Source: an uncultured virus (IMG/VR IMGVR_UViG_3300031884_000004)
Lineage: Duplodnaviria > Heunggongvirae > Uroviricota > Caudoviricetes
IMG/VR virus record: IMGVR_UViG_3300031884_000004
DNA: 61,305 bases
Reading direction: 5' to 3' (one strand)
Below the pieces are notes generated by a model. It did no database searches and was not told the origin of the DNA. It saw nothing but the letters and a program-made list of their open reading frames with translations. Positions within the stretch are counted from its first letter, which is position 1, and the number at the start of each line of letters is the position of its first letter. A program made the position numbers and the translations under genes. Below are positions 31,674-51,262 of this stretch, piece by piece.

Positions 31674-31756
31674 GTAACAGAGATTCCTATGATAAATATA
31701 CAATACTCTGATTGTATTTATCGTTTCAAAAAATCGTCAAATTTACCCGTATACTG

Positions 31757-32755: not shown

Positions 32756-33772
32756 ATGGCAAATCTATTCAAAAAAGCTGCGGTATTTACAGACCTGCAC
32801 TTCGGAGCTAAAAGCAATAGTTTACAGCACAACCAAGACTGTACTGATTTCGTTGATTGGTTCATTACTAAAGCTAAGACAGAGAACTGTGAGACTTGTT
32901 TCTTTTTAGGTGATTACAATCACCATAGAGCAAGCATCAACATGCATACTATGCAATTTGGACTGCGGGCATTAGAGAAGTTAAGCGCAGCGTTTGACGT
33001 TGTTTACTTTATTCCCGGCAATCATGATTTATATTATCGTGATCGTCGGGATATTCACTCAGTTGAATGGGCAAAACATTTACACAATGTAGTCATAGTA
33101 AATGATTGGTTCAAGCAAGATGATGTAGTCATAGCTCCGTGGTTAGTTGGTGATGATTATAAGAAACTACCTAAGCTTAGCGGCAAGTATCTTTTCTCGC
33201 ACATGGAGCTTCCTCATTTTTATATGAATGCAATGATCGAGATGCCGGATCATGGTGAACTAAACGAAGAACATGTTGCTGGATTTGAGAAGGTTTATTC
33301 TGGTCATTTTCATAAGCGACAGTCTAGGAAGAACATTTGGTATATGGGTAATGCTTTCCCTCACAACTACGCAGATGCAGGTGATGATGCTCGCGGTATG
33401 ATGGTTCTTGAGTGGGGCAAAGATCCAGAATTCTATTCTTGGCCAAAGCAACCTTTATTTAGGGTATACAAGTTGAGTCAAGTATTAGAGAACCCAACCG
33501 GCTTGCTTTTACCTAAATCTAATGTTAGAGTACATCTTGACATTGACATTTCATACGAAGAAGCAAACTTTATTCGAGAGACGCTTATACCAGCACACAG
33601 TCTTCGTGAAATGGCATTGATTCCGATCAAGCAAGATCAGCACTCACAGGATTTGGCGCCTGGCGAAATCAAGTTTGAAAGTGTTGATCAAATCGTTGTA
33701 GACCAAATCACTAATATCGAGAGTGATTTCTATGACGCAAAACTATTACTAGAGATTTATCGTAACCTATGA
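32756..33772 (+). CDS. gp47: recombination endonuclease subunit (Mre11/SbcD-like)
   Basis: Metallophosphoesterase motifs TDLHFG, LGD, PGNHD, SGHFH. Confidence 0.92.
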   Translation: MANLFKKAAVFTDLHFGAKSNSLQHNQDCTDFVDWFITKAKTENCETCFFLGDYNHHRASINMHTMQFGLRALEKLSAAFDVVYFIPGNHDLYYRDRRDIHSVEWAKHLHNVVIVNDWFKQDDVVIAPWLVGDDYKKLPKLSGKYLFSHMELPHFYMNAMIEMPDHGELNEEHVAGFEKVYSGHFHKRQSRKNIWYMGNAFPHNYADAGDDARGMMVLEWGKDPEFYSWPKQPLFRVYKLSQVLENPTGLLLPKSNVRVHLDIDISYEEANFIRETLIPAHSLREMALIPIKQDQHSQDLAPGEIKFESVDQIVVDQITNIESDFYDAKLLLEIYRNL

Positions 33773-35847
33773 GTACTGTACTAAAGAATATCACTCTCCG
33801 TAATTTTCTGTCTATTGGCGCAGTTTGTCAATCAGTAAACTTCGATAGCAAAGAACTTACACTGATCTTAGGTGAAAATCTAGATTTAGGTGGTGATGGC
33901 GCTCGTAATGGTACCGGAAAGACGACCCTTATTCAAGGTCTTAGTTACGTTCTGTTTGGTACTCCTATCAACAGTATTCGTAAAGACAATCTCATCAATC
34001 GAACCAATGCTAAGGGCATGATGGTCACTTTGGAATTCAGTTCTGGTGGAATTGAATACAAGATCGAAAGAGGTCGCAAACCAAACATTTTGCGTTTCTT
34101 TGTCAATAATGCGGCGGCCTCTACGGATGAAGACGCCGCCCAAGGCGAAAATAAAGAAACTCAGATTGCAATCGAGCGTGCCATCGGAATGTCCGCTGAC
34201 ATGTTCAAGCACATCGTTGCTCTTAACACCTACTCTGAGCCGTTTTTGGCATTAGGTTCTAACGAACAACGAAAGATCATTGAACAACTATTGGGCATAA
34301 CTCTGCTTTCCGAAAAAGCGGAGATAATCAAAGAAAAGCTCAAGGGCAACAAAGAACTCATTCAATTGGAAGAGTATAAGGTCAAAGCTATTGAGGAAGC
34401 TAACAAGCGTGTTCAGGAACAGCTTGACGGTCTTAAGCGCAGACAGCGCCTGTGGCAAGCCAAACATGACGACGATTTGGCTAGGTTAGCGCTTGATTAT
34501 GATGAACTCAGCAAAATTGATATCGAGGCTGAACTCCAAGCACACAAAGAGCTAACAACATACAATAGCAACAAGAAAAAGCAAGAGCAGTATGAAGCTG
34601 TATTGGCTCGGCAGATCGCCTGGAAGCAAAAGCGCGACAAAGATATTGCTGATTTACAAATTACCTATGACAAGTTGAGCCACATCGATATTGAAGCTGA
34701 GCTACAGGCTCATATTGATTTGGTAGAATACAATCGTAGAAAAATCGAACTAGACTCTGTAAATAAAACGATTGCCTCTTTAGAATCTACACTCAAAAAA
34801 GAACGTTTATCGGTTGAAAAACTGATAAGCGAGGTTAAGACTCTTGAGGAAAACAGATGTTATGCGTGTGGACAAGATTTCCATGATGACGGTCATGTTG
34901 AGGTCCTATCTAGCAAGCGTGCCTTATTGTCTACTGCACAATCTGATCTTGCCCAAACCCAAACTGAGTTAGAAAAAAATAAAAATTCTTTGTTTGTTTT
35001 GGGCGCGGTTCCTACTACTTATTACAAAACACAAACTGAGGCTATCAAGCATAGTTCAGAACTTGAGAACATTCAGAATCAAATTAACTCAAAGCAGGCA
35101 GAAACTGATCCATATGCTGAACAATTAGTGGAGCATTCTGGTGTGATTGTTGGTCCTGCGCCTATCACACACTATGATACTGAAGCCGAAGCGATTGAAC
35201 ATCGTAGCACAGTTGCCAACTTACTTCAGCAAATCGAAAACAAAGTAGCTGAAGCTGATCCATACAGTGAGCAAATTGATGATATGGAAAAGAAGGCTCT
35301 GCAAGTTATAAGTTTTGACAAAATAAATGAGCTTTCAAAATTAGGAGATCACTACAAGTTTCTAGTAGACCTTCTAACTAGTAAAGACTCGTTTGTTAGA
35401 AAGAAGATTATAGATCAAAATCTATCATATCTTAATGCTAGACTTACGAACTATCTAGACAAGATTGGCTTGCCGCATACAGTAGTGTTTAAGAATGATC
35501 TTTCGGTTGAAATTACTGAACTCGGACGTGAACTAGATTTTGATAATTTGTCACGTGGCGAGCGGAACCGATTGATATTAGGACTGTCGTTTGCGTTCAG
35601 AGACGTTTGGGAAAATCTATATCATCCCATCAATACCGTGTTCATTGACGAATTGATAGATTCTGGACTTGATACTATAGGTGTCGAGAACGCAATGGCA
35701 ATTCTTAAGGACCTGTCTAGAAGACGCGGCAAGTCAATCTGGTTAGTCTCTCACCGCGAAGAACTTGCGGGTCGAGTACCTAGCGTACTTAAGGTTGTGA
35801 AAGAGAATGGTTTTACAACCTATCGAAATGATGCTGAACAAGAATGA
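33769..35847 (+). CDS. gp46: recombination ATPase (Rad50/SbcC-like)
   Basis: Walker A NGTGKTT, zinc hook CYAC, signature LSRGE, Walker B VFIDELIDSGLD, SH switch. Confidence 0.93.
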   Translation: MSTVLKNITLRNFLSIGAVCQSVNFDSKELTLILGENLDLGGDGARNGTGKTTLIQGLSYVLFGTPINSIRKDNLINRTNAKGMMVTLEFSSGGIEYKIERGRKPNILRFFVNNAAASTDEDAAQGENKETQIAIERAIGMSADMFKHIVALNTYSEPFLALGSNEQRKIIEQLLGITLLSEKAEIIKEKLKGNKELIQLEEYKVKAIEEANKRVQEQLDGLKRRQRLWQAKHDDDLARLALDYDELSKIDIEAELQAHKELTTYNSNKKKQEQYEAVLARQIAWKQKRDKDIADLQITYDKLSHIDIEAELQAHIDLVEYNRRKIELDSVNKTIASLESTLKKERLSVEKLISEVKTLEENRCYACGQDFHDDGHVEVLSSKRALLSTAQSDLAQTQTELEKNKNSLFVLGAVPTTYYKTQTEAIKHSSELENIQNQINSKQAETDPYAEQLVEHSGVIVGPAPITHYDTEAEAIEHRSTVANLLQQIENKVAEADPYSEQIDDMEKKALQVISFDKINELSKLGDHYKFLVDLLTSKDSFVRKKIIDQNLSYLNARLTNYLDKIGLPHTVVFKNDLSVEITELGRELDFDNLSRGERNRLILGLSFAFRDVWENLYHPINTVFIDELIDSGLDTIGVENAMAILKDLSRRRGKSIWLVSHREELAGRVPSVLKVVKENGFTTYRNDAEQE

Positions 35848-35916
35848 TAAATAGATGTGAGTCGCGGGAGTACGAATCCCCACTCACTCTAATGCTAGAA
35901 GGAGCAATCAGCAATG
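35846..35916 (+). promoter_or_regulatory. late promoter plus conserved structured HEG leader, copy A
   Basis: GATAAATA-gat-GTGAGT-cgc-GGGA-gtacgaa-TCCC-c-ACTCAC-tctaatgcta-gaaggagcaatcagca-ATG. Confidence 0.8.
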
Positions 35917-36621
35917 AATATTTATCTATATAAAAAGACCCACAACATAACCGGTCTTAAATACCTAGGTAAAACAACAGCCAAAGACCCGCACAAATAT
36001 AAAGGCTCAGGTGACTATTGGAAAGATCATATTAAAACTCACGGATATGATGTTACGACTGAGATACTAGCAGAATGCAAAACAACTAAAGAATTAAAAG
36101 AGCGGGGATTGTATTATAGTAATTTATGGAACGTGGTTGAAGAAAAAGATGCCAACGGAAAGAAAACATGGGCTAATTTAAGACCAGAAACCAGTGACGG
36201 AGGAGGTAGATTACCGGGATTTAAGTTAACAGATTCTCACAAAGAAAACATAAGCATTGCCAAAACCGATGTTACTAACCCAAAGTTGAGTGAGCAGAGG
36301 AAAGGTTTCGGAAATCACATGTTTGGACAGAAGCGAGATGATATATCCGGAGATAACAATCCGATGAAAGACCCTGCAATAGCGGACCGTGTTAGAAGAT
36401 CCCATCTCGGTAAAAAACACACTGACGAGTCTAAACGAAAACGATCAGAAAAGCTTTCAGGCCACAACAATCCTATGTTCGGCAAAATCGGAGAACATAG
36501 TCCAAGGTATGGCAAAACATCTCCGCCCATGACGTGTGAACATTGCAGTAAAACCTGCGCTAGACACAACTTTGTGAAATATCACGGAGATAAGTGTAAA
36601 AATAAAAACAACCGTATATAG
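35914..36621 (+). CDS. GIY-YIG homing endonuclease with NUMOD3-like repeats and C-terminal zinc finger
   Basis: IYLYKKTHNITGLKYLGKT...YKGSG...WANL; HTDESKRKRSEKLSGHNNPMFGK; CEHC...HGDKC. Confidence 0.85.
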   Translation: MNIYLYKKTHNITGLKYLGKTTAKDPHKYKGSGDYWKDHIKTHGYDVTTEILAECKTTKELKERGLYYSNLWNVVEEKDANGKKTWANLRPETSDGGGRLPGFKLTDSHKENISIAKTDVTNPKLSEQRKGFGNHMFGQKRDDISGDNNPMKDPAIADRVRRSHLGKKHTDESKRKRSEKLSGHNNPMFGKIGEHSPRYGKTSPPMTCEHCSKTCARHNFVKYHGDKCKNKNNRI

Positions 36622-36635
36622 ACAATAAATATCAT

Positions 36636-37208
36636 ATGCCTTCTAAATCTAAAGCAAAAGGAAGTTCATTTGAGCGGGAGGTCGCGGCCTTCTTGTCAGC
36701 GTTGTATTCCGCTTCATTTGTGCGTGTTCCCAATTCAGGCGCGTATATCGGACGATCTAATTCTCATCGCAAAAACATACTTGATGCAAATCAAACTAAG
36801 TCTTTCAAAGGAGACATAATTGCGCCTGATGATTGGGTAAATTTTAACTCTGAATGCAAGAGCTATGCTACTTTCCCTTTTCATCTTTTGCTCTCAGGTG
36901 ATTGCAAAGTGGTCGAGTCTTGGTTAGATCAGTTAATGGAAGTATCTGACCCTGACAATCTAAACATATTGATGTTTAAGATTAATAGAAAAGGACGCTT
37001 TGTCGCCGTTCAAACAAAGTACACGTGGGTTACTGACAACTTCATTCTTTACACCTCAGCTAAACACGGCGATTGGGTGTTCATAGAATTCGATAACTTT
37101 TTTAAACTCAACAAAGACCTTCTTAAAGCATATTCAGGCTCATCTACAAATAATTCTTCTGGCTCACCCGACACCACGTCCGACAACATTATCTCCATTC
37201 AAATCTAA
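36636..37208 (+). CDS. Holliday junction resolvase-like PD-(D/E)xK nuclease
   Basis: SKSKAKGSSFEREVA...RVPNSGA...GDII...SECK. Confidence 0.75.
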   Translation: MPSKSKAKGSSFEREVAAFLSALYSASFVRVPNSGAYIGRSNSHRKNILDANQTKSFKGDIIAPDDWVNFNSECKSYATFPFHLLLSGDCKVVESWLDQLMEVSDPDNLNILMFKINRKGRFVAVQTKYTWVTDNFILYTSAKHGDWVFIEFDNFFKLNKDLLKAYSGSSTNNSSGSPDTTSDNIISIQI

Positions 37209-37235
37209 AAAATCACAGAACCCTATATTGGCGTT

Positions 37236-37760
37236 TGGTCGGGGTACCTCGACTCTCCTTGAGCGACATGCGAGATATCATGGCGCGGATCTGGAGTCTG
37301 CTGAGCATCATGGAATCCATGATGTTCGGGAATACCGACAGGGCTCTCGCTTGGTAGAATGCGAACCCTGAATGAGTCTACACGTCTATTCTGTCTTGAA
37401 GGTGTAGAACATGCGTTGCAGAAGAACTTCCCCTAAGGGGTGGTCAGCTTCACTACAGCCCTAGCAAACTTTACAGTGCAACCGGTAGCGTCAATCAGCA
37501 ACAAACGCTAGATTGACGGGGGATAGACAGCAACGGTGGAAGGTCCATGGCATGGCCCCTAATACCATTGGTAGTGCTGAATAGCACTACCATGGCTTCC
37601 AATCCGGCATGTATAACTCCTAGAGAGTATTCTTTAAGACAATTAAAAAGAATATATCGAACGTAGTGAGATATAAGTTGTCCGTAAGGACAACTCTAAA
37701 AGATACTCTAACCTAAGTAGATATGGAAATAGAGAGAATTAAATGAATAGTTCTCTCTAT
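37236..37760 (+). ncRNA. candidate large structured non-coding RNA (or structured DNA element), family unassigned
   Basis: No ORF of 60 aa or more; lies between convergent genes; about 10 helices, a GNRA-capped stem and a long-range pseudoknot (see findings). Confidence 0.55.
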
Positions 37761-37765
37761 GTCGG

Positions 37766-38002
37766 TTAGAAGAATGGTAGCTGGGATTTCTTTGTAGTTT
37801 CTAGGTTGCTATCAATTATATCGTTGATAGCCTTTCTTTCCTCTATAGACATGTTGAGGATGTCCTCATATGAAGCGCCACCGCGCATGTACCATGCCAT
37901 AGTAAGTGCAGATTTGCGTATACCCGCTACGTCTTTTTCATACTCATCTAGTAGCTTCTGAATCTCTTCGGGTTTAGAGCGTAGAAGCTTTAGCCGAAAA
38001 AA
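37766..38002 (-). CDS. gp51-like ORF, probably the -1 frameshift extension of the gp26-like gene
   Basis: FFRLKLLRSKPEEIQKLLDEYEKDVAGIRKSALTMAWYMRGGASYEDILNMSIEERKAINDIIDSNLETTKKSQLPFF*. The frame opens exactly at T TTT TTC (38002-37996). Confidence 0.7.
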   Translation of the reverse strand, partial: FFRLKLLRSKPEEIQKLLDEYEKDVAGIRKSALTMAWYMRGGASYEDILNMSIEERKAINDIIDSNLETTKKSQLPFF

Positions 38003-38811
38003 TCAGAAGGGTTCAATGAGAAATCTTGCTCGTATTCGTGTCCGCAGCTATCACATTTTATCTTTAATGGCTGTGGTGTGGAACTTTTCTTAAGTTCTGT
38101 AGCGTAGTCTCTAATAGAAGTAAAAGTATTTCGATCACAGTTCTTGAGAAAATCTAGAATAAACTCATTTTCTTGTACCTTGATTTCTGGTGTTTCTATA
38201 TATTCAATACCTAAACTTAATAATTTCATAGTCAACAACGTTACCCGTTCAAGTGCATCACCACCTATTTTATTTTTTTCCTCTTCTGACATATTTTCCA
38301 TAGAGGCAAACAGTTTTTGCATTTCAAACTGAGCTATAGAAGCTTCATTCATTTCTTTATAAACCAACGGTCTAAACTTAATTTTTAGATCACCTACTTC
38401 AAATTCCTTATTGTAATCCCCTGCCTTAAGGGTAGACAATATACCAACTAAGCTGATGCCGTACGGAGAAAGTTCGTTACATTTTGGACAGATCGAATCT
38501 ATGTCCAATTGATCACCGTTGGAAGCAGACTTAATTGCGATGAGGATAGCATCTAAATCACTGCTACTAATAGCCCATGGATCTTTGATGTCAGGTACAC
38601 AGCTTTTTATTAATTCAGCAATTGCAGTACCGTTAAACAACGAATCCGGAGTTCTGGCTGTAATTTCATCAATAGCAGTCATCGGATAGATTGGTAATTC
38701 GCCGGTTACTGGAATGTTTATCACGTCCTCTGAGTAGCTTGTGGTTCCTGAGGGGAGTTTTAGGTAAACAGCAGGTCTTCTGAAGTACTGTCTTAGCGGG
38801 TTATTGTTCAT
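37990..38811 (-). CDS. gp26: baseplate hub/tail assembly chaperone, T4 gp26-like
   Basis: NPLRQYFRRPAVYLKLPS...PMTAIDEI...DLDAILIAIKSAS...CPKC...CDSCGHE...NPSDFFG. Confidence 0.75.
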   Translation of the reverse strand: MNNNPLRQYFRRPAVYLKLPSGTTSYSEDVINIPVTGELPIYPMTAIDEITARTPDSLFNGTAIAELIKSCVPDIKDPWAISSSDLDAILIAIKSASNGDQLDIDSICPKCNELSPYGISLVGILSTLKAGDYNKEFEVGDLKIKFRPLVYKEMNEASIAQFEMQKLFASMENMSEEEKNKIGGDALERVTLLTMKLLSLGIEYIETPEIKVQENEFILDFLKNCDRNTFTSIRDYATELKKSSTPQPLKIKCDSCGHEYEQDFSLNPSDFFG

Positions 38812-38842
38812 AATTTCCTCATAATTTTCGGTTTTTAGTTAA

Positions 38843-38868
38843 CACTAAATACATACGTATATTTAGTG
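38843..38868. promoter_or_regulatory. palindromic pair of late promoters for the divergent gp26 and tape measure genes
   Basis: CACTAAATA-catacgta-TATTTAGTG inverted repeat, giving CTAAATA on both strands. Confidence 0.7.
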
Positions 38869-38906
38869 GTCAAAAAACCCAATTATTTAATTTAACGGAA
38901 TCGACT

Positions 38907-41900
38907 ATGGATCCAGAAATCGCAGCAGAGCTAAGCGCACAGCTTAAAGAGTTATCAGATATTATTAGCCGGGACGCCTCTCCTGCAATAAAAAATCTCA
39001 GCGAATCTTCTGATAACGCTTCAACTCGCGTAGGTAGCGTCAACAAAGCATTCAGATCGTTAGACGATGCTGCCGGTAGCTTCGCTAAAGCATTACTTAA
39101 CGGTACAGGTGAGTTAAACAAATATACATCAGCTTTAGATAGCATGGGAACCGCCGCAATACAAGTAGGAAAAGCTTTGGGGCCCGTTGGGGTTGCTGCA
39201 GGTTTAGTAGCTGCTGCATTTACTAAAGTAGTGAGTGCAGCGACCGCCCAAACTGATAATTTACTAAAATTTTCTGATGGTATCAGTAGGTTAGGTGCTG
39301 TTAACACTTTCACCACTAACGAACTTCAAAAGATGGCTAATAATGCTGGTTTAGCCTCAGGTGATTTTCAAAAAATGCTCAAACCTATGCAAAGCATGGG
39401 TAATTCCTTCAATGCATTAGGTAATGGAGCCGCCGATTCTACTAAGAAGTTTGCAGAACAGGTTCATGTAACCGAAAAGGTTAGAAATCAATTTCAAAGA
39501 TTGGGATATGGCGTAGACGAACTAATGCAGGCTCAGGCTGACTACAACACCTTAATGTCTGAAGGTGGTGTTTCGTTGCGAGATTTGAGTAAGACTACCG
39601 GTGGTCTGCAAGGTGCATCCCTTGCATACATCAAAAATTTAAATGAGATGTCCGCAGCTACCGGAGAATCTGTAGAACAAGAGAAGAAAACTCAAGCCGC
39701 GTCGATGGCTAATATACAATTCCAGCTATTTCTTGCTAAAAAACACAAAGAAATGGACGCAGCAAAGACTCAAGCTGAAAAGGACGCTATAAAAAAGCAA
39801 ATAGATAGTGCGCAAAACGCAGTTCAAGTTGCACAAAGAACAGGCGGCGCCGACTCCGCCGCCGCCATGGCTCAACAGATAACACAAGGTTTTGTTTCCG
39901 GGCCTTTCCAAAAAGCTCTAGCACTTCAAGGTACTGGTCAGGATTATGCAAAAACGGCGTCAGCCGTCAACGCAGGAACGTTTGGTACTAAAGAGGCCGG
40001 TGACTTCCAAAAAGATTTGGTTGATAAAACATTAGACTTTGCAACTAAAAATAGTACAGCATTGTCTGTTAATTCAGGATTAGCTTCTGCGGCTAATATT
40101 AATACAGGAACACTCACTACAGCAAACCAATTAGCTGGATATGAACCAGCTAGTGTAGCTGAAAATGGACCAGAAGATCCAGCACAAGATGCGAGAAATG
40201 CGTTAACTAATGCAGAAATCAAAGCTAAAGTTGGAATGGATGAGTTAATTAATAGTATGAATCCATTCCAACATGGTTTAACTCTGGCAACCTTAGCCGG
40301 TGTAGCACTTGCAGGAGCTCTTGGGCTAGTTACATTTAACTTAGGAAAAGCAGCATTAGGAAAAGCAGGTGGACTTGCGGGTCTATTAGGAGGCGGTGCT
40401 CCGAAAGGAGCAGCCGGCGCCGCTGAGGCAGTAGGTGGTATGAGTAAAGCCGCCGGCGGCGGAATGCTTATGGGTCTAGTAGAAGCACTAGCAGCAGCAG
40501 GTAAGGCCGGGCCGGCGGTTATGGAGGGCGGCGTGGCATTAGGGGTTGCTCTTGCTGCGATCATCACCGGTATCGGTGCTGGTTTGGCCATAGGCGGCGG
40601 CTTAATAAGCGTAATGCTTCCAAGCTTGGGAAAGAGTTTAAAAGCGTTTAATGACATTAACGGCGAAAATCTTAAAAAAGCCGGTTTAGGTATGGCGGCA
40701 TTAGGCGTTGGCATCGTTGCTATAGGCGCTGGACAAGTTGCTGGAGCAATGGGTAGAATGGCCAACTTCTTTACTGGAGGAGGTAAAGAAGATCCGCTAA
40801 AGATTGCTGCTAAGCAACTAATGTATTTCCAATCATTCCCTATCGACGGTGCCAAAGTAAAAACCAACGCCGATGCATTAATAGCATTTTCGGAAGCGAT
40901 GTCTAAGTATAAAGGCGGACCAAGCTTGGGAACAGCAATAAAAGATATAGCAGTTTCCGGATTAAGCAAGTTATTCGGTCAAGACAGCCCGACTGAAGCA
41001 TTCCTTAAGTTCACTAAGATGGATTTTGGTCCTAATGCAGACAAGAACACTGATGCATTCTTGAAGTTCGCTACTGCTATGGGTAGCTTCCGAGGCGGTG
41101 GAGCATCCGGCGGCGGCGGCGGAGCTATGGCAGCAGGCGCCGCTTTAGGGGCAGGAGCAGTGGGTGCAGTAGGAGGCGCGTTGGGCGCAGCTGGTCATGC
41201 AGCAGGAGGCGCGTTGGGCGCAGCTGGTCATGCAGCAGGAGGCGCGTTGGGCGCAGCTGGTCATGCAGCAGGCGGCGCGTTGGGCGCAGCTGGAAGTTTC
41301 TTAGGAAAAGCCGGTGGCGCCGCCGCAGGTGCAATTGGGTCATTTGGAAATTGGGTAATGGATCTAATTGCAGGACATGAAGGAGTGCGTACTAAACCAT
41401 ATAAAGACTCCTTAGGTAAATGGACAATTGGGGTGGGTCATTTGATCGGTGACGGTAGTACTTTACCACCTGAATGGAATCGTGAGTTCTCTAAGGATGA
41501 AGTCATGAAACTTTACCAGCAGGATTTCGGCAAGCATAAACAAGCTGCTAGCAATATTCCGGGATTCAACAAATTAAATGAAAAAGGCCAAGCTGCGCTA
41601 ACAGACTTGACATTTAATATGGGCCCGTCTTGGTACAAAAAGTGGCCACATTTAACTGCTGCACTTTCGGCTGGTGATGTTGAAGGCGCGGCCGCACAAT
41701 TATCTTCTAGTAAGTGGGCAGGACAAGTAGGGCGTCGGGCGCAAGAGGATATTTCACTACTTAGACAAGGAAAATTACAAGCTAGAAACGGTGGAATGTT
41801 TGATGGGCCATTGTCTGGATATCCGGCTACATTGCACGGCGGCGAACTGGTTGCACCTTTAGGACCAGATTCTTTGCTTATGAAATTAGCTAAAACACCT

Positions 41901-42089
41901 GCAACTGACGCGGCCGCAATAGAAACTATAGTTAAAGGTAAAACCGCACACCCTCATTCTTCTGGTAATTCAGGAGAAATTACAGCGGAAATGTTTGGAA
42001 TGATGGCAAATAAATTAGATAAAGTAATCTCCGTCCTTGAAAGTAGTCACGGTACACAGACTAAGTTATTACGTAATTCAATGGCATAG
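38907..42089 (+). CDS. tape measure-like protein with C-terminal T4-type (GH24) lysozyme domain
   Basis: Long Ala/Gly-rich helical protein with hydrophobic segments; HEGVRTKPYKDSLGKWTIGVGHLI (E-x8-D-x5-T), ALTDLTFNMG, SKWAGQVGRRA. Confidence 0.8.
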   Translation: MDPEIAAELSAQLKELSDIISRDASPAIKNLSESSDNASTRVGSVNKAFRSLDDAAGSFAKALLNGTGELNKYTSALDSMGTAAIQVGKALGPVGVAAGLVAAAFTKVVSAATAQTDNLLKFSDGISRLGAVNTFTTNELQKMANNAGLASGDFQKMLKPMQSMGNSFNALGNGAADSTKKFAEQVHVTEKVRNQFQRLGYGVDELMQAQADYNTLMSEGGVSLRDLSKTTGGLQGASLAYIKNLNEMSAATGESVEQEKKTQAASMANIQFQLFLAKKHKEMDAAKTQAEKDAIKKQIDSAQNAVQVAQRTGGADSAAAMAQQITQGFVSGPFQKALALQGTGQDYAKTASAVNAGTFGTKEAGDFQKDLVDKTLDFATKNSTALSVNSGLASAANINTGTLTTANQLAGYEPASVAENGPEDPAQDARNALTNAEIKAKVGMDELINSMNPFQHGLTLATLAGVALAGALGLVTFNLGKAALGKAGGLAGLLGGGAPKGAAGAAEAVGGMSKAAGGGMLMGLVEALAAAGKAGPAVMEGGVALGVALAAIITGIGAGLAIGGGLISVMLPSLGKSLKAFNDINGENLKKAGLGMAALGVGIVAIGAGQVAGAMGRMANFFTGGGKEDPLKIAAKQLMYFQSFPIDGAKVKTNADALIAFSEAMSKYKGGPSLGTAIKDIAVSGLSKLFGQDSPTEAFLKFTKMDFGPNADKNTDAFLKFATAMGSFRGGGASGGGGGAMAAGAALGAGAVGAVGGALGAAGHAAGGALGAAGHAAGGALGAAGHAAGGALGAAGSFLGKAGGAAAGAIGSFGNWVMDLIAGHEGVRTKPYKDSLGKWTIGVGHLIGDGSTLPPEWNREFSKDEVMKLYQQDFGKHKQAASNIPGFNKLNEKGQAALTDLTFNMGPSWYKKWPHLTAALSAGDVEGAAAQLSSSKWAGQVGRRAQEDISLLRQGKLQARNGGMFDGPLSGYPATLHGGELVAPLGPDSLLMKLAKTPATDAAAIETIVKGKTAHPHSSGNSGEITAEMFGMMANKLDKVISVLESSHGTQTKLLRNSMA
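41171..41293 (+). repeat. 33-bp coding tandem repeat, about 3.7 copies (GGALGAAGHAA)
   Basis: aggaggcgcgttgggcgcagctggtcatgcagc x3 exact, plus a partial fourth copy. Confidence 0.95.
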
Positions 42090-42121
42090 CACTAAATATT
42101 AGATTAAGAGAACTGGTTCAT

Positions 42122-45100
42122 ATGTCTGGATACAAGAAGAAATTTCTAAACAAGAGTGGTGTTTCGAGTCCTATCTCTGGTGCGAGCAGTAATGCCGGAG
42201 CATGGAATGGGTCGCCTGGACAAAACGGTATGCCAACTGGTGGTTGGAACAATACTGAATTTGGATACAAAAACTATCAAAGTAGACTACCGGAAGTCTA
42301 CACTGGTCACCCCAACAGAATCGAACGATACAATCAATACGAAATGATGGACGTTGATGCTGAAATCAACGCTTGTTTGGACATCATAGCAGAGTTCTCT
42401 ACACAGCGAAATGAACATAACAAGACACCGTTTGCGTTTGAATTCAAAGGAGAACCTACGCCACGTGAAGTAGAATTGCTAGGTAAGCAGCTACAACAGT
42501 GGTGCAAGCTAAATGAATTCGACGTGAGAATGTTTAAGATTTTCAGAAACGTTGTCAAGTATGGTGACCAAGTATTTGTTCGTGACCCAGAAAACTTTAA
42601 GCTATACTGGGTTGATATGGTTAAGGTCATTAAGGTTATCGTCAACGAATCTGAGGGCAAGAAGCCGGAACAGTATGTCATCAAAGACATCAATATCAAT
42701 CTACAAAACTTATCAGTAGCACAGAAAACCAATACTGACTTTGCTGCGAACCCAGCAACTGGTTTAGGTGGTAGTGGCGGCGGAACTAACACCCCGTACA
42801 CTGTTCCGGCAATGCCATATAATACGACTGGAAGTCGTTTTACATTAGGTCAGAGTGAATCAGCAGTAGACAGTAAGCATATTGTACACTTGTCCTTAAC
42901 TGAAGGATTAGATAGATTTTGGCCTTTTGGTCAATCTATACTGGAAAACATCTTTAAGGTCTATAAGCAAAAAGAACTACTAGAAGATGCGGTTCTTATC
43001 TATCGTGTGCAGCGTGCACCTGAACGTAGAATGTTTAAGATCGATGTTGGTAACATGCCAAGTCACTTAGCAATGGCATTTGTTGAGCGAGTAAAGAACG
43101 AAATTCACCAGCGTAGAATTCCCTCACCGTACGGTGGACAGTCGATTGTGGACGCCTCTTATAACCCTTTATGTTTGGATTTAGAAACTAAAATTCCACT
43201 TTTAGATGGAAGAACCTTGTCTTTACAAGAAATAATCACTGAATTTGAAGCTGGAAAAGAAAATTGGGCGTATAGCTGCGATCCAGTAACCGGTAGAGTA
43301 GTACCTGGAGTAATTAATTGGGCTGGCATTACTAGAAAAAACACAGAAGTAATTAAACTTACTTTTGATAACGGCAAAACATTAGTTTGTACACCAGACC
43401 ATAAAATACCTGTGTTTGATAAAGGCTTTGTAGAAGCACAACATTTAACTGAAAATGATAGTCTAATTGCGTTCAATACTCAAAATAAAAATATTTCAGG
43501 CGGAAAAACCAATGATTACCAGCAGGTATGGGACCATGAGAGTAAAAAATGGATTTGGACTCATCGGATGGTCGGGGATTTCTTTAGAAATTTAGGAAAG
43601 CACCAAGAATTTAATTATCTAACTGAATACGCAATGGCACCTAGAACAGTTATTCATCATAAAGATAACAATAGATTTAATAACGAACCCAAAAACCTAG
43701 TATTCATGAACAAAACAGATCATGTTTTATATCATGCTGCACAGAAAAAAGAATTTTGGGAAACGATGTCAGATGAATATAGAAAGCAGATAACGTCTAA
43801 AACTTCGGCCACTCTAAAAGAAAATTGGGAAAATATGACCGAAGAAGAACGTCTAATCGGTCTTTGGAACATTAGAGCAGCGCAACAAAAAGCTGTATGG
43901 GCTAGAAAGAACGATCCTATAACTGCGGCTAAATATAAATCTAGTATGCAACAAGTGCGCAAAGAGTACTTTGATCGTAATCCAGTTGGTTTGGAAAAAG
44001 TTCGTGCAAATTGTGAAAAGAGAGTTAAAATTAAAAATCAACCACTGATCTTGACATTTGATATGGTACAACGAGTAGCAGAACAGGTTAAGCAAGGTAA
44101 TAAAAATAAAAATAAGGTACTGGAGTGGTGTGATAATGATAGCACCTTATTGAGTTTGGTTAAGAATGCTAATTCATCACCATTGGATTATAAAAATGCA
44201 CAATGTAAAATAGACTTTAATAAGTTTGGGTACAGTAAGTTAGACAGACTTCTTTCTAAATTTGGATATAAAAATTGGAAACATTTTGTAAAAGAAATTG
44301 ACAATTTTAACCATAGAATTGTAAAGATTGAAAAGGTAAGTAACAGAGACACTGGAACTATAACTATTGATGGGCGTCATCAATGGCATGATTATCATAC
44401 GTTTGCTATCGACGCTGGTATATTTGTAAAGAACTCAATGAACGAAGACTATTTCTTCCCTGTAACAGCAGAAGGACGTGGATCATCTGTTGAAGTTCTG
44501 CCGGGCGGACAAAATCTAGGTGAAATCGATGACTTGAAGTACTTCAATAATCGTCTTGCCCGTGGACTTCGTGTTCCGTCTTCATACTTACCAACTGGTC
44601 CCGACGACAATACTACACCCATGAACGATGGTCGTGTCGGCACAGCGATGATTCAAGAATTTAGATTCAATCAATACTGTGAAAGACTTCAGAATTATAT
44701 CTGCTTGAAGCTGGATGAAGAGTTTAAGTTATTCTTGCGTTGGAGAGGCTTCAATATTGATACTAGTCTTTTCCAACTAACTTTTAATCCTCCGCAAAAC
44801 TTTGCAGCCTACCGTCAGAGTGAGTTAGATAATGCACGAGTATCAGTGTTCTCTGCTATGGATGCTATTCCATACATGTCAAAGCGCTTCAACCTTGAAA
44901 GATTCTTAGGTCTTTCAGAAGAAGAAATCAAGAAGAACGAAAAGCTCTGGGAAGAAGAAAACAGAGAAGAAGTCACTAGCGAACCACAGGGTGCTGATCT
45001 TAGAAACATAGGTGTATCCAGCGGAGACTTTGATGCTGATATGAATACTGCGGATCAGATTGAGAATTCCGAACAGGAAGGTGAAGCACCGGAAACTGCT

Positions 45101-45181
45101 GGGCCAGTTTCAGGCGGCGATGTAGCAGCAGAACCATCAGCAATGGGCGGACCTGGAGCAACTCCGGGCGGCGGCTTCTAA
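42122..45181 (+). CDS. gp20: portal protein, T4 gp20-like, intein-containing (about 598 aa after splicing)
   Basis: LEDAVLIYRVQRAPERRMFKIDVGNMP and SMNEDYFFP...GRGSSVEVLPGGQNLGEIDDLKYF. Confidence 0.93.
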   Translation: MSGYKKKFLNKSGVSSPISGASSNAGAWNGSPGQNGMPTGGWNNTEFGYKNYQSRLPEVYTGHPNRIERYNQYEMMDVDAEINACLDIIAEFSTQRNEHNKTPFAFEFKGEPTPREVELLGKQLQQWCKLNEFDVRMFKIFRNVVKYGDQVFVRDPENFKLYWVDMVKVIKVIVNESEGKKPEQYVIKDININLQNLSVAQKTNTDFAANPATGLGGSGGGTNTPYTVPAMPYNTTGSRFTLGQSESAVDSKHIVHLSLTEGLDRFWPFGQSILENIFKVYKQKELLEDAVLIYRVQRAPERRMFKIDVGNMPSHLAMAFVERVKNEIHQRRIPSPYGGQSIVDASYNPLCLDLETKIPLLDGRTLSLQEIITEFEAGKENWAYSCDPVTGRVVPGVINWAGITRKNTEVIKLTFDNGKTLVCTPDHKIPVFDKGFVEAQHLTENDSLIAFNTQNKNISGGKTNDYQQVWDHESKKWIWTHRMVGDFFRNLGKHQEFNYLTEYAMAPRTVIHHKDNNRFNNEPKNLVFMNKTDHVLYHAAQKKEFWETMSDEYRKQITSKTSATLKENWENMTEEERLIGLWNIRAAQQKAVWARKNDPITAAKYKSSMQQVRKEYFDRNPVGLEKVRANCEKRVKIKNQPLILTFDMVQRVAEQVKQGNKNKNKVLEWCDNDSTLLSLVKNANSSPLDYKNAQCKIDFNKFGYSKLDRLLSKFGYKNWKHFVKEIDNFNHRIVKIEKVSNRDTGTITIDGRHQWHDYHTFAIDAGIFVKNSMNEDYFFPVTAEGRGSSVEVLPGGQNLGEIDDLKYFNNRLARGLRVPSSYLPTGPDDNTTPMNDGRVGTAMIQEFRFNQYCERLQNYICLKLDEEFKLFLRWRGFNIDTSLFQLTFNPPQNFAAYRQSELDNARVSVFSAMDAIPYMSKRFNLERFLGLSEEEIKKNEKLWEEENREEVTSEPQGADLRNIGVSSGDFDADMNTADQIENSEQEGEAPETAGPVSGGDVAAEPSAMGGPGATPGGGF
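43172..44434 (+). mobile_element. intein (421 aa) with HNH endonuclease in the portal
   Basis: YNPL|CLDLETKIPLLDG...CTPDH (block B)...VIHHKDNNRFNNEPKNL (HNH)...TFAIDAGIFVKN|SMNEDY. Excision restores YNPLSMNEDYFFP. Confidence 0.92.
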
Positions 45182-46018
45182 GATAACATCCACCCGCGTA
45201 CAGATTTTCTTTTTCCAGACATTAATAAACTTACATTTCCTTGATGTAGGTTGTATGTTTTTATAAAATCAAACACTGTCATTCTAACTTCTTCTAGTGT
45301 ATTTTTATTTTTAAATGAGTATACATTGGGGTTATAATTAGGGTGCCCCTTTCCAAATTGAGTTGATTTGTAATTAGGGTTGTTTCTGTAATGATTAATT
45401 CCAGAATTTTTACTGATTACATATTCTCGAAAGGAGTCATTCCAGTTTGATTTACTTTCTGCTATCTTTTCTATTACTTCTTTAGATTTTGAAGGATTGT
45501 TTTCCCTAACATTCTATCAGATAAGTCTTTCCTCCAATCTGGGTTATTTTTAGTTCTAGTGTCGATTGCTTTTTTTCTTATATGTTTTTTGTCTTCAGTA
45601 GACATGTGCGAAAATCGTGATCGAGACAGATCACCTTGTTTTTTTCTTTTTTCGGGAGTCCATGCGTGATCAATTCTATTTTTAAATTCAATAGTTTTAG
45701 AATGATGGCTGTCACCAAAAACAGTTGCACCTCCGTCGCCCTCTTCAAACTTTAGATTAGCCCACGTTTTCTTCCCATTCTTATCCCGCTCGTCTACTAT
45801 ATTCCACAGTTTAGAGTAGTATAACCCCATTCTGCTACCTCTTCTTTAGAGTGACACTCTCGTAATATTTCAGTAGTAACATCATACCCATGTGTTTTTA
45901 TATGCGACCTCTACATTTTTCCGGATCCTGGATACTTATATGGATTAGATTGTGCGGTTTTACCTAAGTATTTTAATCCAGTTATGTTATGGGTTTTCTT
46001 GTATAGATAAATAGTCAT
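45178..46018 (-). pseudogene. degenerate GIY-YIG homing endonuclease
   Basis: MTIYLYKKTHNITGLKYLGKT...GSGKM*RSHIKTHGYDV, with TAG at 45911-45913 where the paralog has Trp. Frameshifts near 45826 and 45505; the tail reads ...QGNVSLLMSGKRKSVRGWMLS*. Confidence 0.85.
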
Positions 46019-46088
46019 GCTGATGTTTCCTAAGATAGCATTAGAGTAGTTGGGGTTTGCTGACCCGCGAACTACGTTTATATTTATC
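46016..46088 (-). promoter_or_regulatory. late promoter plus conserved structured HEG leader, copy B
   Basis: GATAAATA-taaac-GTAGTT-cgc-GGGT-cagcaa-ACCC-c-AACTAC-tctaatgcta-tcttaggaaacatcagc-ATG. Confidence 0.8.
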
Positions 46089-46102
46089 ATAATGATAAAT
46101 AT
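46080..46102. promoter_or_regulatory. back-to-back divergent late promoters
   Basis: ATATTTATCAT-a-ATGATAAATAT perfect inverted repeat. Confidence 0.7.
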
Positions 46103-46117
46103 ATTGATGAGGGTGTC

Positions 46118-46351
46118 ATGCTTTTAGAAGATATTTTTAGTCCGCCGGTCAATGGTCTACAGGATGTAAATTCTGACAACAGCAGACCTGTGTATAGAAC
46201 GTCACGCAAGACTAAGTTGACGCTTAGACAGATTCGAAAGCTTCGTAGAATGCTGGATGTAAGAACATTCGAGAAGCAACAGTACCTAGAAAAGTTACGT
46301 AAACAGTATGGTGCTAAACCTGACGCTGCGGCCGGGGCACCTAGCATCTAG
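46118..46351 (+). CDS. small basic hypothetical protein of the head module
   Basis: 77 aa, with GAGG SD and late promoter; SRKTKLTLRQIRKLRRM...KQYG. Confidence 0.7.
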   Translation: MLLEDIFSPPVNGLQDVNSDNSRPVYRTSRKTKLTLRQIRKLRRMLDVRTFEKQQYLEKLRKQYGAKPDAAAGAPSI

Positions 46352-46409
46352 TTATCGTAAAACCTGAATATGAAGGAGACGTTTGTCCTATTTATATAGG
46401 AGAAACTCG

Positions 46410-47045
46410 TCAATCTCGTATTACTATCCAACCTTTAACCGATTTATGTTTACCACTTATTAACCAACTTATGTTCCCTTGATACTTTGATAAATCATGT
46501 TTGATCATGAAATCTTTTGCTGTTAAAATTTCTATTTCACCAGTTTTTACGTGTTTCCATTTATATACAGGTTGATTAACTTTATCTACAAAAGCAAGTG
46601 ACCTGTTTTGTTTCAAGAAATGATGAGTTCCGTTTTCTACTCGTTTTTTTCCTCTGAGACTTGCGGCTTCTTTGTCTAAGAAATGATGAGTTCCGTTTTT
46701 TACCCTGTCCGACGCATGTGAACTACCATCTGCCCTTTTGATCAAGTTGTGGGTATTATTCTGTATTCTGGTTAAGTTCTGTAGCCTATTCAAATCGGAT
46801 AGTTTTTCAGGTGAAACTTTTTGTTTTTTACCTAGTAAAAAACAAGCACCGTAGTCACCTTGAGAATAATGAATATCATAATGTTCTTGAATAGTTACAC
46901 ACTTCAAGTTTATCGGGTCATTATTTGAATGATCACCGTCTATGTGATGGATTTCATATGATCGATCATTCTCTTCTTTTGGAATAGGTCCGTTGTGTTG
47001 TTCGTAGATTCTACGGTATTTGGTAGTGCCGCAATAAATACACAT
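46410..47045 (-). CDS. HNH homing endonuclease
   Basis: YRRIYEQHNGPIP...YEIHHIDGDHSNNDPINLKCVTIQEHYDIH; RVxNGTHHFL repeats; C-terminal HTH-like domain. Confidence 0.88.
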   Translation of the reverse strand: MCIYCGTTKYRRIYEQHNGPIPKEENDRSYEIHHIDGDHSNNDPINLKCVTIQEHYDIHYSQGDYGACFLLGKKQKVSPEKLSDLNRLQNLTRIQNNTHNLIKRADGSSHASDRVKNGTHHFLDKEAASLRGKKRVENGTHHFLKQNRSLAFVDKVNQPVYKWKHVKTGEIEILTAKDFMIKHDLSKYQGNISWLISGKHKSVKGWIVIRD

Positions 47046-47113
47046 GCTGATTGCTCCTTATAGCATTAGAGTAGTTGGGTGTTAGCGCACCGTGAACTAC
47101 ATCTTTATTTATC
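47043..47113 (-). promoter_or_regulatory. late promoter plus conserved structured HEG leader, copy C
   Basis: GATAAATA-aagat-GTAGTT-cac-GGTG-cgctaa-CACC-c-AACTAC-tctaatgcta-taaggagcaatcagc-ATG. Confidence 0.8.
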
Positions 47114-47235
47114 TTTCTCCATATTTATTTTGTATAGCACCGCCAAAAACGCAAAAAAGACTACTTAATACGGTGTTTTTTGTCTCACTGCATAAGTATA
47201 ATATACAAAGCCATTTCTATTCAGGAGACAATTTA

Positions 47236-48066
47236 ATGGATATCAGAAAATACGAACAAATGATCAACCTCGTAATCAATGAAGATCACGAGCAAGCATC
47301 AGAACTCTTTCACGAAATCGTAGTAGAAAAGTCACGCGAAATCTTTGAGTCAATTATGGCCGAAGAAGATGACGATGATATGGACGAAGGTATGGGCGGA
47401 CAAGTAGGTGATCTACTTGACGAAATCAACGCCGAAGAAGAAGGTGTTACCGAAGAAGACGAAAGCGACATCGAATTTGATGATGAAGCTGAAGAAGACG
47501 GTGAAGACTTCACTCACGACCTAGAAGCAGAACACGACGAAAGCGAAGAACACGAAGAAATTGAAGATGCAGTAATTCGCATCGAAGACAAGCTCGACCA
47601 ATTGATGGCAGAGTTTGAAGAAATCATGGGTTCAGGCGAAGAAGAAGACTTCGGCGACGAAGAAGATTTCGGCGACGAAGACGAAGAAGATTTCGGCGAC
47701 GAAGAAGATTTCGGCGACGAAGACGAAGAAGATGCAGAAGACATGATGGAAGCAGTTCAGCTTCAGAAGGTTTCTGTAACTCACGGTGACAATGGTCAGA
47801 ACACTAAGAGCCCAACTACTTTCAATTCAGGACAAGCTGGAATGGACAGCAAGCCAGTAAAGTTTGCTGACGGTAATGAAAAGGGTCGTACTGCTCCTCC
47901 TACTAAGGATCTTAAGGGCGCAGGACAGTTCAAGAACGTACCAGGAAAGAAGTCACAAGATTTGAGCGCAGCACCTAAGCCAAAGCACGGTGATGACGGT
48001 CAAAACACCAAGAGCCCAGTAGCAGAATCACGCAAGCGTGCTCCTGCTCGTAGACCAACACGATAA
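47236..48066 (+). CDS. highly acidic prohead core-like protein
   Basis: AGGAG SD before ATG 47236; ASELFHEIVVEKSREIFES; EEDFGD tandem repeats at about 47641-47730; lies between portal and protease. Confidence 0.65.
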   Translation: MDIRKYEQMINLVINEDHEQASELFHEIVVEKSREIFESIMAEEDDDDMDEGMGGQVGDLLDEINAEEEGVTEEDESDIEFDDEAEEDGEDFTHDLEAEHDESEEHEEIEDAVIRIEDKLDQLMAEFEEIMGSGEEEDFGDEEDFGDEDEEDFGDEEDFGDEDEEDAEDMMEAVQLQKVSVTHGDNGQNTKSPTTFNSGQAGMDSKPVKFADGNEKGRTAPPTKDLKGAGQFKNVPGKKSQDLSAAPKPKHGDDGQNTKSPVAESRKRAPARRPTR

Positions 48067-48081
48067 GTAATCTGAGAGCAA

Positions 48082-48222
48082 ATGGCTTTGTACATCAGAA
48101 GTGAGAATCGGGCAAACGTAAAATCAGTCCCGAATCTCTATGGTTGGACTCACGTGCCACTTTACGGTAGGTATGTGAGTCCACAACCCGCTTCTGAATG
48201 CAAACCAAAAGAGGTGTTATAA
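48082..48222 (+). other. structured 140-nt insert and 46-codon uORF duplicating the protease start
   Basis: ATGGCTTTGTACATCAGA (MALYIR) versus ATGGCTCTATATTTAAGA (MALYLR). The uORF ends in a TAATG overlap and the insert folds as a three-way junction. Confidence 0.6.
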
Positions 48223-48860: not shown

Positions 48861-48876
48861 TAAAGGGATCACAGAT

Positions 48877-49968: not shown

Positions 49969-49996
49969 TTAGACATAGTTTAGGAGAATATACATA

Positions 49997-51193: not shown

Positions 51194-51234
51194 ATCACGT
51201 TACAGTGATAACTGTTAGAAAGTTATACAAGGTG

Positions 51235-51262
51235 GAAAAGGGGACAGAAATGTCCCCTTTTC
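51235..51262 (+). terminator. intrinsic terminator after capsid gene
   Basis: GAAAAGGGGACA-GAAA-TGTCCCCTTTTC, followed by T-rich sequence. Confidence 0.85.

Follow-up and report, generated by a model that had tools for sequence, protein, structure and literature searches.

The window analysed here is a stretch of 61,305 nt, bases 60848-122152 of the 181,278-base IMG/VR virus record IMGVR_UViG_3300031884_000004, which is estimated to be about half complete, and it contains three copies of a short structured cassette that precede homing endonuclease genes (HEGs). A family scan found genes for gp23, gp20, a prohead protease, baseplate proteins and Rad50/Mre11-like gp46/47, identifying the virus as a T4-like myovirus. 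Its capsid protein shares at most 66.5% identity with those of cultured phages, the nearest being the capsid proteins of Pseudomonas PA5oct-type phages, a Vibrio jumbo phage and Asteriusvirus-type jumbo phages. The three cassette copies, each of ~70 nt, were located at 35846-35916 (+), 46016-46088 (-) and 47043-47113 (-), where an earlier inspection of the bare letters (hereafter the sequence-only reading) had placed them, and their stems differ from copy to copy as it had described. Each copy consists of GATAAATA, a 6-bp outer stem, a CRC/C internal loop, a 4-bp inner stem, TCTAATGCTA, a Shine-Dalgarno sequence (SD), ATCAGC and the ATG, and the conserved block continues into the open reading frame (ORF) as ATG-NNT-ATT-TAT (Table 1). 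In copy 1, the G of GATAAATA is the final base of the TGA stop codon of the gp46/Rad50-like gene (33769-35847), and the second hairpin encloses the SD AAGGAG (35899-35904), so that on the - strand its loop bears an anti-SD.

The sequence-only reading had assigned two GIY-YIG genes and one HNH gene to the three copies. The genes behind copies 1 and 3 are indeed intact, the former of the GIY-YIG/NUMOD3 type (NUMOD3, 4.3e-12; SegE_GIY-YIG with a weak E of 0.01 and 16.5 bits, under the 25-bit cut-off) and the latter of the HNH_3 type, whereas copy 2 is followed by no more than the decayed remains of a GIY-YIG gene. The domains of the two intact genes, HNH_3 or NUMOD3/weak GIY-YIG, are consistent with free-standing HEGs. 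A covariance model returned exactly six matches in the whole 181-kb record, all at E<=1e-10, the three copies beyond the window heading a 220-aa HNH gene, a 214-aa HNH gene and a frameshifted GIY-YIG gene. Copies 4 and 1 of the record have near-identical leaders, one on an HNH gene and the other on a GIY-YIG gene. The GIY-YIG gene of copy 6 (record ~142250-142950; L253 353-1047) is split by the frameshift into ORFs of 75 aa and 182 aa; two of the six cassettes (copies 2 and 6) head broken endonuclease genes and are themselves intact.

ARAGORN found no tRNA in the window, and the idea that the hairpin derives from a tRNA or a tRNA-like RNA was rejected. When one mismatch is allowed, the TCTAATGCTA 10-mer is not enriched on its own (7 occurrences vs 6.2 expected).

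Table 1. Positions of the cassette copies, their parts and associated genes in the window
Feature	Position	Strand	Details
Copy 1, cassette including its ORF part	35846-35926	+	
Copy 1, sense late-type promoter motif GATAAATA	35846-35853	+	
Copy 1, hairpin P1	35857-35887		outer stem 35857-35862/35882-35887; internal loop CGC/C; inner stem 35866-35869/35877-35880
Copy 1, hairpin P2	35889-35911		CTAATGCT (35889-35896) pairs with AGCAATCAG (35903-35911)
Copy 1, backward-facing late-promoter motif GATAAATA	35919-35926	-	reads TATTTATC in HEG codons 2-5
Copy 1, entire cassette, antisense-strand covariance model R1	35842-35927	-	E 1.1e-11; record 96689-96774
HEG 1, GIY-YIG-type/NUMOD3 endonuclease	35914-36621	+	235 aa
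Copy 2, entire cassette	46005-46092	+ (model match)	E 3.3e-16
Copy 2, sense promoter motif	46081-46088	-	
Copy 2, hairpin P1	46046-46075		
Copy 2, hairpin P2	46020-46044		
Copy 2, ATG	46016-46018	-	
Copy 2, backward promoter motif	46006-46013	+	
Decayed GIY-YIG gene behind copy 2	45400-46018	-	stop after 35 codons, further stops, frame changes
Copy 3, entire cassette	47032-47117	+ (model match)	E 1.9e-16
Copy 3, sense promoter motif	47106-47113	-	
Copy 3, hairpin P1	47071-47100		
Copy 3, hairpin P2	47047-47069		
Copy 3, ATG	47043-47045	-	
Copy 3, backward promoter motif	47033-47040	+	
HEG 3, HNH_3 endonuclease	46410-47045	-	211 aa; HNH_3 5.5e-13
Major capsid protein gp23	49997-51193		

The cassette accompanies endonuclease genes in a clade of large phages

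IMG/VR was searched with two patterns. Pattern 1, the 3' part of the cassette with 20 specified bases, was found at at least 121 loci, giving 80 distinct leader windows that include four copies from the record itself; together with the six model matches in the record, this places the cassette beyond chance. Pattern 2, which fixes only the commonest form of the P1 hairpin, was found at at least 126 loci, giving 118 distinct copies. Pattern 1 is present in just 8 of these 118, so the two samples are largely independent and one hairpin is free to vary in each. From the first sample we built alignment A3 (79 of the 80 windows, omitting L063, in which the pattern is present and the hairpin and promoter are absent), and from the second alignment A4, 110 copies in the orientation opposite to the gene; these come from 117 copies with enough flank, of which 8 were left unparsed (109 were expected, 110 retrieved). 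In all, ~190 distinct copies were gathered.

In five other large records, with genomes ranging from 259 to 525 kb, the covariance model gave 8, 2, 13, 13 and 2 matches. The capsid proteins of four of these records are 94-100% identical to that of the window and the fifth is 85% identical over a fragment, indicating that the carriers form one clade of close relatives. In the two near-complete genomes with 13 matches each (G003 and G004), all 26 matches are followed by an ORF that begins at the cassette ATG; 24 of the 25 ORFs of at least 40 aa match PHROGs annotated as homing, HNH or intron-like endonucleases, the remaining one having no match, and the 26th ORF is a 30-aa GIY-YIG-like stub. In the first scan, 28 of 46 ORFs (those with long flanks among 72 of at least 60 aa) had endonuclease-type Pfam matches at E<=0.01 and 18 had none. 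These data support, for a module known from its sequence, the view that it is portable and accompanies HEGs irrespective of nuclease family, as the sequence-only reading had proposed.

No whole-window match to Rfam 15 reached the gathering score, in agreement with the sequence-only reading, which did not recognise the motif as a named family. At E<=10, three loci carrying four copies gave only three weak, chance-level matches; a mir-287 match touching the promoter end of copy 2 (19.7 bits vs a gathering score of 80, E 2.5) was judged to be chance. Among 50,697 GenBank phage records, neither megablast with 13 kb nor blastn with copy 3 (106 nt, E<=0.01) gave a match, the phage's own record being possibly masked. 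Among 185,579 species genomes, the cassette pattern occurred only on four short contigs of metagenome bins (L280-L283; three of ~1.9-2.1 kb and one of 43 kb), with the bin labels proteobacterium, Bacteroidetes, Legionella and Haliscomenobacter. These contigs are probably phage DNA mis-binned into metagenome-assembled genomes of unrelated bacterial phyla, and hence allow no host inference. No account of the cassette was found in the literature searched, subscription papers lying outside the coverage of that search. The cassette is thus a candidate new RNA family.

A 259-aa HNH gene lies right behind gp23 (51313-52092, +; region from 51285) and has GATAAATA 21 nt 5' of its ATG and no cassette, showing that not all HEGs of this phage use the cassette.

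Two hairpins of the cassette covary

Standard pairs make up 95.7% of the 784 P1 cells in A3, in which P1 lies outside the search pattern, and double changes that keep pairing were found at 9 of the 10 pairs, in 170 cells. When the P1 arms were slid against each other, pairing fell to 30-54%, and none of 500 shuffles matched the observed pairing, number of double-changed cells or covariation score. Similarly, in A4, where P2 is the helix outside the pattern, 97.4% of the P2 cells are paired and 6 of the 8 pairs show double changes, compared with 33-47% paired in slid controls of the whole structure. RNAalifold, given no structure as input, recovered the same two hairpins with one additional G-C pair inside the internal loop. 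The covariation that the sequence-only reading saw in three copies is thus borne out in larger alignments.

The second stem had to be redrawn. A stem around the SD exists as proposed, but the TGCT/AGCA pairing said to bracket the start codon as well is replaced by CTAATGCT/AGC(A)ATCAG, the helix that covaries in relatives, which encloses the SD only and ends 2-3 nt 5' of the ATG. Likewise, a loop ending in AA and an invariant TCTAATGCTA are features of the three window copies and do not hold across the family: in relatives, the TCTAATGCTA region reads TCTAAYNNN and its pairing partner changes in step, indicating that TCTAATGCTA forms the 5' side of a helix that covaries. On the opposite strand, this helix (P2') has a loop that is 6-7 nt long in 102 of 110 copies and contains CCT or CTC, an anti-SD, in 103 of 110.

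The pairing fits the strand opposite the gene

Since an A·C mismatch on the gene strand is a G·U wobble on the opposite strand, the asymmetry of wobbles indicates the strand on which a helix folds. Among the non-Watson-Crick cells of P1 in A3, read on the gene strand, 26 are A·C or C·A and 3 are G·T; in the well-aligned outer stem the counts are 15 A·C vs 1 G·T, spread across at least 9 stem sequences. For P2' in A4, read on the opposite strand, the 880 cells comprise 681 Watson-Crick pairs, 172 G·U, 2 A·C, 21 other and 4 gapped cells. When each of 32 helix types is counted once and the invariant pair excluded, 22 G·U still stand against 2 A·C. One P2' pair is G·U in all 110 copies and a second alternates between U·G (43 copies) and U-A (43 copies), so that P2 on the gene strand would bear one or two A·C mismatches in most copies.

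Predicted folding energies point the same way. The minimum free energy of the opposite-strand core is lower in 144 of 174 copies (mean -15.6 vs -12.7 kcal/mol), and in the window copies it is lower in two and equal in the third. Together, wobbles and modelled energies indicate that pairing has been selected on the strand opposite the endonuclease gene.

A backward-facing promoter motif lies inside the reading frame

The opposite strand also carries a promoter-like motif of its own. Of 191 distinct copies, 182 have TATTTA no more than 16 nt from the start codon (offset +5 in 135, +4 in 23, +3 in 22 and +8 in 2), and 6 of the 9 exceptions differ from it by a single base. The motif occupies all three frames, being read as M-x-I-Y, M-I-F-I or M-Y-L, and isoleucine at codon 3 is encoded by ATT in 134 of 134 cases, compared with 614 of 1528 isoleucine codons further down the same ORFs. 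Conservation is therefore at the nucleotide rather than the protein level. TATTTA(T) is the reverse complement of the (A)TAAATA promoter core. The late promoter published for T4-like cyanophages, as given in the accessible part of that report, is NATAAATA (PMC2984593), and 34 of the 55 occurrences of NATAAATA in the whole record lie within 120 nt 5' of an ORF of at least 80 aa, indicating that it behaves like a promoter here.

The two facing motifs have fixed distances to the hairpins: the forward motif is separated from P1 by 5 nt in 144 of 166 copies and the backward motif from P2' by 6 nt in 146 of 166. Their first positions vary in a similar manner and independently of each other, with A 130, G 23, C 8 and T 5 in the backward motif and A 146, C 16 and G 4 in the forward one. 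Sense NTAAATA was a requirement of the parser and hence occurs in each of the 166 parsed copies, whereas the backward TATTTA was demanded by neither search pattern. Putative promoters, recognised by their motifs, thus face each other across the translation start throughout the family. In T4, late transcripts begin about six bases after TATAAATA; applied to the cassette, this rule puts the predicted 5' end of the mRNA on the opening base of P1 and that of the backward RNA one base ahead of P2'.

Several other arrangements of these motifs were seen. Two GATAAATA motifs at 31692-31721 stand face-to-face, 29 nt apart, across a short inverted repeat that separates the divergent genes 30204-31703 (-) and 31810-32706 (+), a facing late-promoter layout without the cassette. 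In several genes (window 36625-36638 and several places in the record), NATAAATA lies merely 3-8 nt 5' of the ATG; the PD-(D/E)XK gene at 36636, for instance, has AATAAATA 4 nt 5' of its start. If transcription starts ~6 nt after the motif, such genes would yield leaderless or nearly leaderless late mRNAs. In many copies at related loci (e.g. L254, L255, L261, L264, L267, L268 and L272), TGTCAA(G/T), the reverse complement of TTGACA, occurs 7-8 nt 5' of the forward GATAAATA, and other copies have TATTTATC, an outward-facing late-promoter motif, at a distance of ~10 nt on the 5' side.

A candidate antisense RNA over the translation start

Based on these features, we propose that the cassette is a portable two-faced unit in which a ~75-nt antisense RNA, encoded between facing late promoters, holds the HEG in check, and that it also serves as an ORF-swap junction; we put the probability of this reading at about 0.5. 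In this model, the cassette would be a ~85-95-bp expression unit of free-standing HEGs in one clade of uncultured T4-like jumbo phages, with two late-type NATAAATA promoters facing each other ~65 bp apart. Transcription of the HEG from the left promoter would probably begin with the first base of P1, so that the mRNA has a hairpin at its 5' end, a strong SD and a ribosome site that is largely open. The right promoter, on the other strand within HEG codons 2-4, would start the antisense RNA, whose order would be NATAAATA, 5 nt, G, P2' (8 bp), a linker A, P1' (6 bp, G/GCG internal loop, 4-5 bp) and ACTTTTATTTAT. The P2' loop of 6-7 nt would present the anti-SD CUCCUU, and P1' would resemble a terminator followed by a U-rich tail, the tail being the complement of the left promoter. 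Such an RNA would be perfectly complementary to the 5' untranslated region, SD and start codon of the HEG, a complementarity that follows from geometry: in each of the three window copies, both the SD and the ATG fall between the backward promoter and P1'. It would restrain translation of the HEG or the life of its mRNA in cis and, on copies that share the leader, in trans. The pairing region is almost letter-identical among the copies, two to thirteen per genome, so that the RNA could act in trans, which would explain why unrelated nucleases have a common leader.

Several points weigh against this reading. Promoter firing, the transcript starts, termination at P1' and repression of the HEG by the RNA are steps that we infer. 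A search for RNA sequencing runs matching positions 42100-52000 of the window listed none. Interruptions break up the U-rich tail (consensus ACTTTTATTTAT, with T making up a mean fraction of 0.59 over 12 nt), and of the three window copies only copy 2 is flagged by a simple terminator scan (+ strand, 46054-46073). The bases CUG...UAG-A-G and the G/GCG loop are nearly invariant, although an antisense RNA acting in cis needs no sequence conservation, so that some other reader (a protein, an RNase or action in trans) would be required. P1 pairs well on the gene strand too (747 of 784 cells Watson-Crick), which leaves room for a role of P1 in the mRNA. Single-copy fold z-scores are modest (opposite strand, -2.33, -1.90 and -1.00; gene strand, -1.47, -1.81 and -1.08). 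Parts of the cassette were fixed in each of the two search patterns, and 8 copies out of 117 were dropped because they could not be parsed, as was the hairpin-less L063. Finally, the carriers are close kin, so many copies share recent descent and the counts are not independent events.

A further-reaching version, which we consider rather unlikely, is that the RNA senses copy number and confers cross-immunity. Every copy would emit the same antisense RNA, silencing all HEG mRNAs with the common leader whatever their nuclease family, so that the phage caps the total activity of its 6-13 HEGs and, in mixed infection, the resident RNA blunts the endonucleases of an incoming relative. A conserved RNA-binding protein or RNase would then take hold of the RNA at the invariant G·U and the G/GCG loop.

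Alternative explanations

The hairpins might instead belong to the mRNA leader, P1 as a 5'-stabilising and P2 as a ribosome-binding-site (RBS)-modulating hairpin acting in cis only, with TATTTA as an A/U-rich start context. The 95.7% pairing of P1 on the gene strand, the 5-nt gap that separates it from the promoter in 144 of 166 copies, the T4 start rule, which sets the mRNA 5' end at the stem base, and the position of the SD inside P2 all suit such a leader, and hairpins that govern HEG translation are known in T4 and Aeh1, to go by the available portion of PMC3014915. On the gene strand, however, P2 contains an A·C mismatch in 110 of 110 copies and a second in 43 of 110, and an A/U-rich context leaves unexplained both the exact, three-frame TATTTA at fixed spacing and the 134 of 134 ATT codons. 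The sequence-only reading had also placed the conserved structure in the mRNA leader; the wobble asymmetry of both helices (26 vs 3 and 172 vs 2), the better folding of the opposite strand in 144 of 174 copies and the backward promoter motif point to the other strand, and we regard the leader explanation as unlikely, if not strongly so. Somewhat less probable still is a temporal mask of the T4 gene e/I-TevI type, in which ATAAATA in early or read-through RNA would pair with TATTTAT and close a three-way junction over the initiation region, late RNAs starting inside it and being translated. In favour of a mask, ATAAATA and TATTTAT, which lie ~65 nt from each other, are exact reverse complements, short ATAAATAC...GTATTTAT hairpins span an SD just before an ATG elsewhere in this genome (record 319-347 and 138267-138300), and the mechanism is documented for e, soc, 49 and I-TevI in the part of PMC3014915 at hand. 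Yet departures from consensus at the first position stay pairable in only 6 of 47 cases, the next outward position pairs in 91 of 166 copies vs 88 expected from shuffles, and the upstream arm barely alters the predicted unpaired probability (0.58 with vs 0.55 without it for the SD, 0.43 vs 0.40 for the AUG). A mask would also leave unexplained why P1 and P2 tolerate wobbles on the opposite strand only. A long-range helix between promoter and TATTTAT as the main constraint was rejected on the 6 of 47 pairable departures and the unchanged accessibility of SD and AUG, and the I-TevI-style RBS-sequestering switch of the sequence-only reading accordingly lacks support from covariation or predicted accessibility. 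A further suggestion of that reading, an RNA bound by the nuclease, is unlikely given that the cassette is common to unrelated nuclease families. In sum, the sequence-only reading was probably wrong on strand and mode of action.

The element could also work as DNA, its inverted repeats forming hairpins in single-stranded template-strand DNA or a recombination hotspot that marks exchange or attracts a replication/repair protein, with no small RNA involved. DNA hairpins tolerate G·T wobbles too, so the strand asymmetry alone is no proof of RNA; moreover, the block is a recombination junction in two loci (L055/L120) and a chimeric P1 exists in L100 (see below), and the PeSL cassettes of T4-like phages are described as recombination points in the accessible section of PMC4122927. 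Recombination, however, requires identity and not compensatory pairing, and the location of the helices precisely between two promoter motifs at fixed spacing, the anti-SD in the loop and the U-rich tail behind P1' all suit a transcript, which makes a purely DNA-level role quite improbable. We find it highly improbable that the backward promoter mainly serves an adjoining phage gene, as a replacement for a late promoter displaced by insertion of the HEG, with the fold as the leader of that gene. Copy 3 does face a + strand gene by the prohead protease (47092/47236-48066), and an ORF on the opposite strand lies upstream in 22 of 50 cassettes with enough flank. In 20 of the 50, though, the upstream ORF is on the same strand. 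Copy 1, which follows the gp46-like gene, and copy 2 are among these, and there a backward RNA would run antisense to a gene. A terminator-like hairpin right after the start would be counter-productive, and several divergent neighbours own a NATAAATA just outside the cassette. Fitting only about half of the contexts (22 opposite- vs 20 same-strand of 50), the neighbour-promoter role was rejected.

The cassette as a junction for exchanging reading frames

The second part of the proposed reading concerns exchange between cassettes. At two syntenic loci, L055 and L120, the upstream genes are ~75% identical, and identity rises to 100% over ~115 nt from the terminator of the upstream gene to ATGTGTATTTATT. 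After ATGTGTATTTATT, one locus continues with a GIY-YIG-like ORF (N-terminal motifs; no Pfam match) and the other with an HNH_3-like ORF (N-terminal motif). In addition, P1 of L100 is chimeric, with the 5' arm of one stem type and the 3' arm of another. A near-identical block shared between copies would act as a homologous-recombination junction for the exchange of endonuclease ORFs. To judge from these sequences, the role of an ORF-swap junction, which the sequence-only reading had listed among its options, is supported, with one clear example and few in all.

Relation to known systems

The arrangement recalls that of IS10/Tn10, in which a short stable stem-loop RNA, RNA-OUT, covers the RBS and start codon of the transposase mRNA, RNA-IN, and causes multicopy inhibition in trans. 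Both are mobile elements with promoters (putative in the cassette) that face each other around the 5' end of their own enzyme gene, and we propose for the cassette the same kind of antisense stem-loop RNA complementary to the RBS and start codon, acting in trans so that expression falls with copy number. The cassette differs in that its enzymes are homing endonucleases of several families and not a transposase, its promoters are of the T4 late type, and its RNA, a predicted one, has two hairpins with an anti-SD in a loop and no sequence or Rfam relation to RNA-OUT.

Within T4-like phages, a precedent for antisense RNA over an HEG is CfrI of cyanophage S-PM2, which overlaps an HEG and is co-expressed with it, according to the available part of the text that describes it (Millard et al. 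2010, via PMC2984593). The likeness to the RNA proposed for the cassette ends there: CfrI, as described in that part, is ~225 nt long, links the HEG to psbA and belongs to one locus, whereas the cassette RNA would be ~75-85 nt, multi-copy, confined to the 5' end and spread over many unrelated HEGs.

Late promoters combined with RBS-sequestering hairpins are described, in the accessible portion of PMC3014915, for T4 e, soc, 49, I-TevI-III and segB and for Aeh1 mobE. These share with the cassette a late promoter (putative in the cassette) directly before the HEG, an RNA structure at the initiation region and late-only expression, which for the cassette is a prediction. As that portion presents them, they are single mRNA hairpins with the promoter in the 5' arm, whereas the helices of the cassette exclude the promoter and fit the opposite strand. 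Furthermore, the cassette ATAAATA complements TATTTAT in codons 2-4 rather than the SD or AUG, and the promoter-TATTTAT pairing shows neither covariation nor predicted masking.

PeSL elements are small early-promoter/stem-loop cassettes of T4-like phages that serve as points of homologous exchange, as far as the section of PMC4122927 available to us goes. Like the cassette, they are composite blocks of promoter and stem-loop (terminator) repeated through the genome, with exchange between otherwise unrelated ORFs, and L055/L120 gives one example of a PeSL-type exchange junction. By the same source, PeSLs have an early promoter and flank diverse ORFs of hyperplastic regions, whereas the cassette has two late-type promoters, is tied to endonucleases, reaches into the ORF and contains two covarying helices with specific invariant bases. 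A PeSL-type early promoter was not found among the conserved cassette motifs, which are the late-type NATAAATA; a sigma-70 scan gave one 10-of-12 site just 5' of copy 2 (46119-46092, -) and none before copies 1 and 3 on the HEG strand.

The cassette would thus combine two known kinds of element, antisense control of a mobile element's enzyme, by an RNA predicted here, and mobile promoter/stem-loop cassettes. The regulation of the twelve free-standing homing endonucleases of T4 was stated to be unknown at the time in the accessible text of PMC2790892. With one recognisable cassette at the head of hundreds of HEGs from unrelated nuclease families, their control becomes directly testable. If true, the antisense reading would mean that the RNA-OUT logic known from insertion sequences applies to homing endonucleases and to late transcription of the T4 type as well. 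The cassette also offers a compact natural unit of putative bidirectional late promoters and a defined ORF-swap junction, and it should help to annotate HEGs in metagenomic jumbo phages and to understand their shuffling.

Other genes of the window

The portal gene gp20 (42122-45181, +) contains an intein with an HNH_3-like endonuclease segment (Intein_splicing 5e-9, HNH_3 1.5e-4), an additional mobile element inside a core structural gene. A 170-aa protein encoded close to the capsid genes (52748-53260, +) has a sigma-70 region 4 domain (7.5e-10) and, judging by this domain, may be a phage-encoded sigma or late-transcription factor. A single ORF of 6297 aa (547-19440, -) adjoins the baseplate genes.

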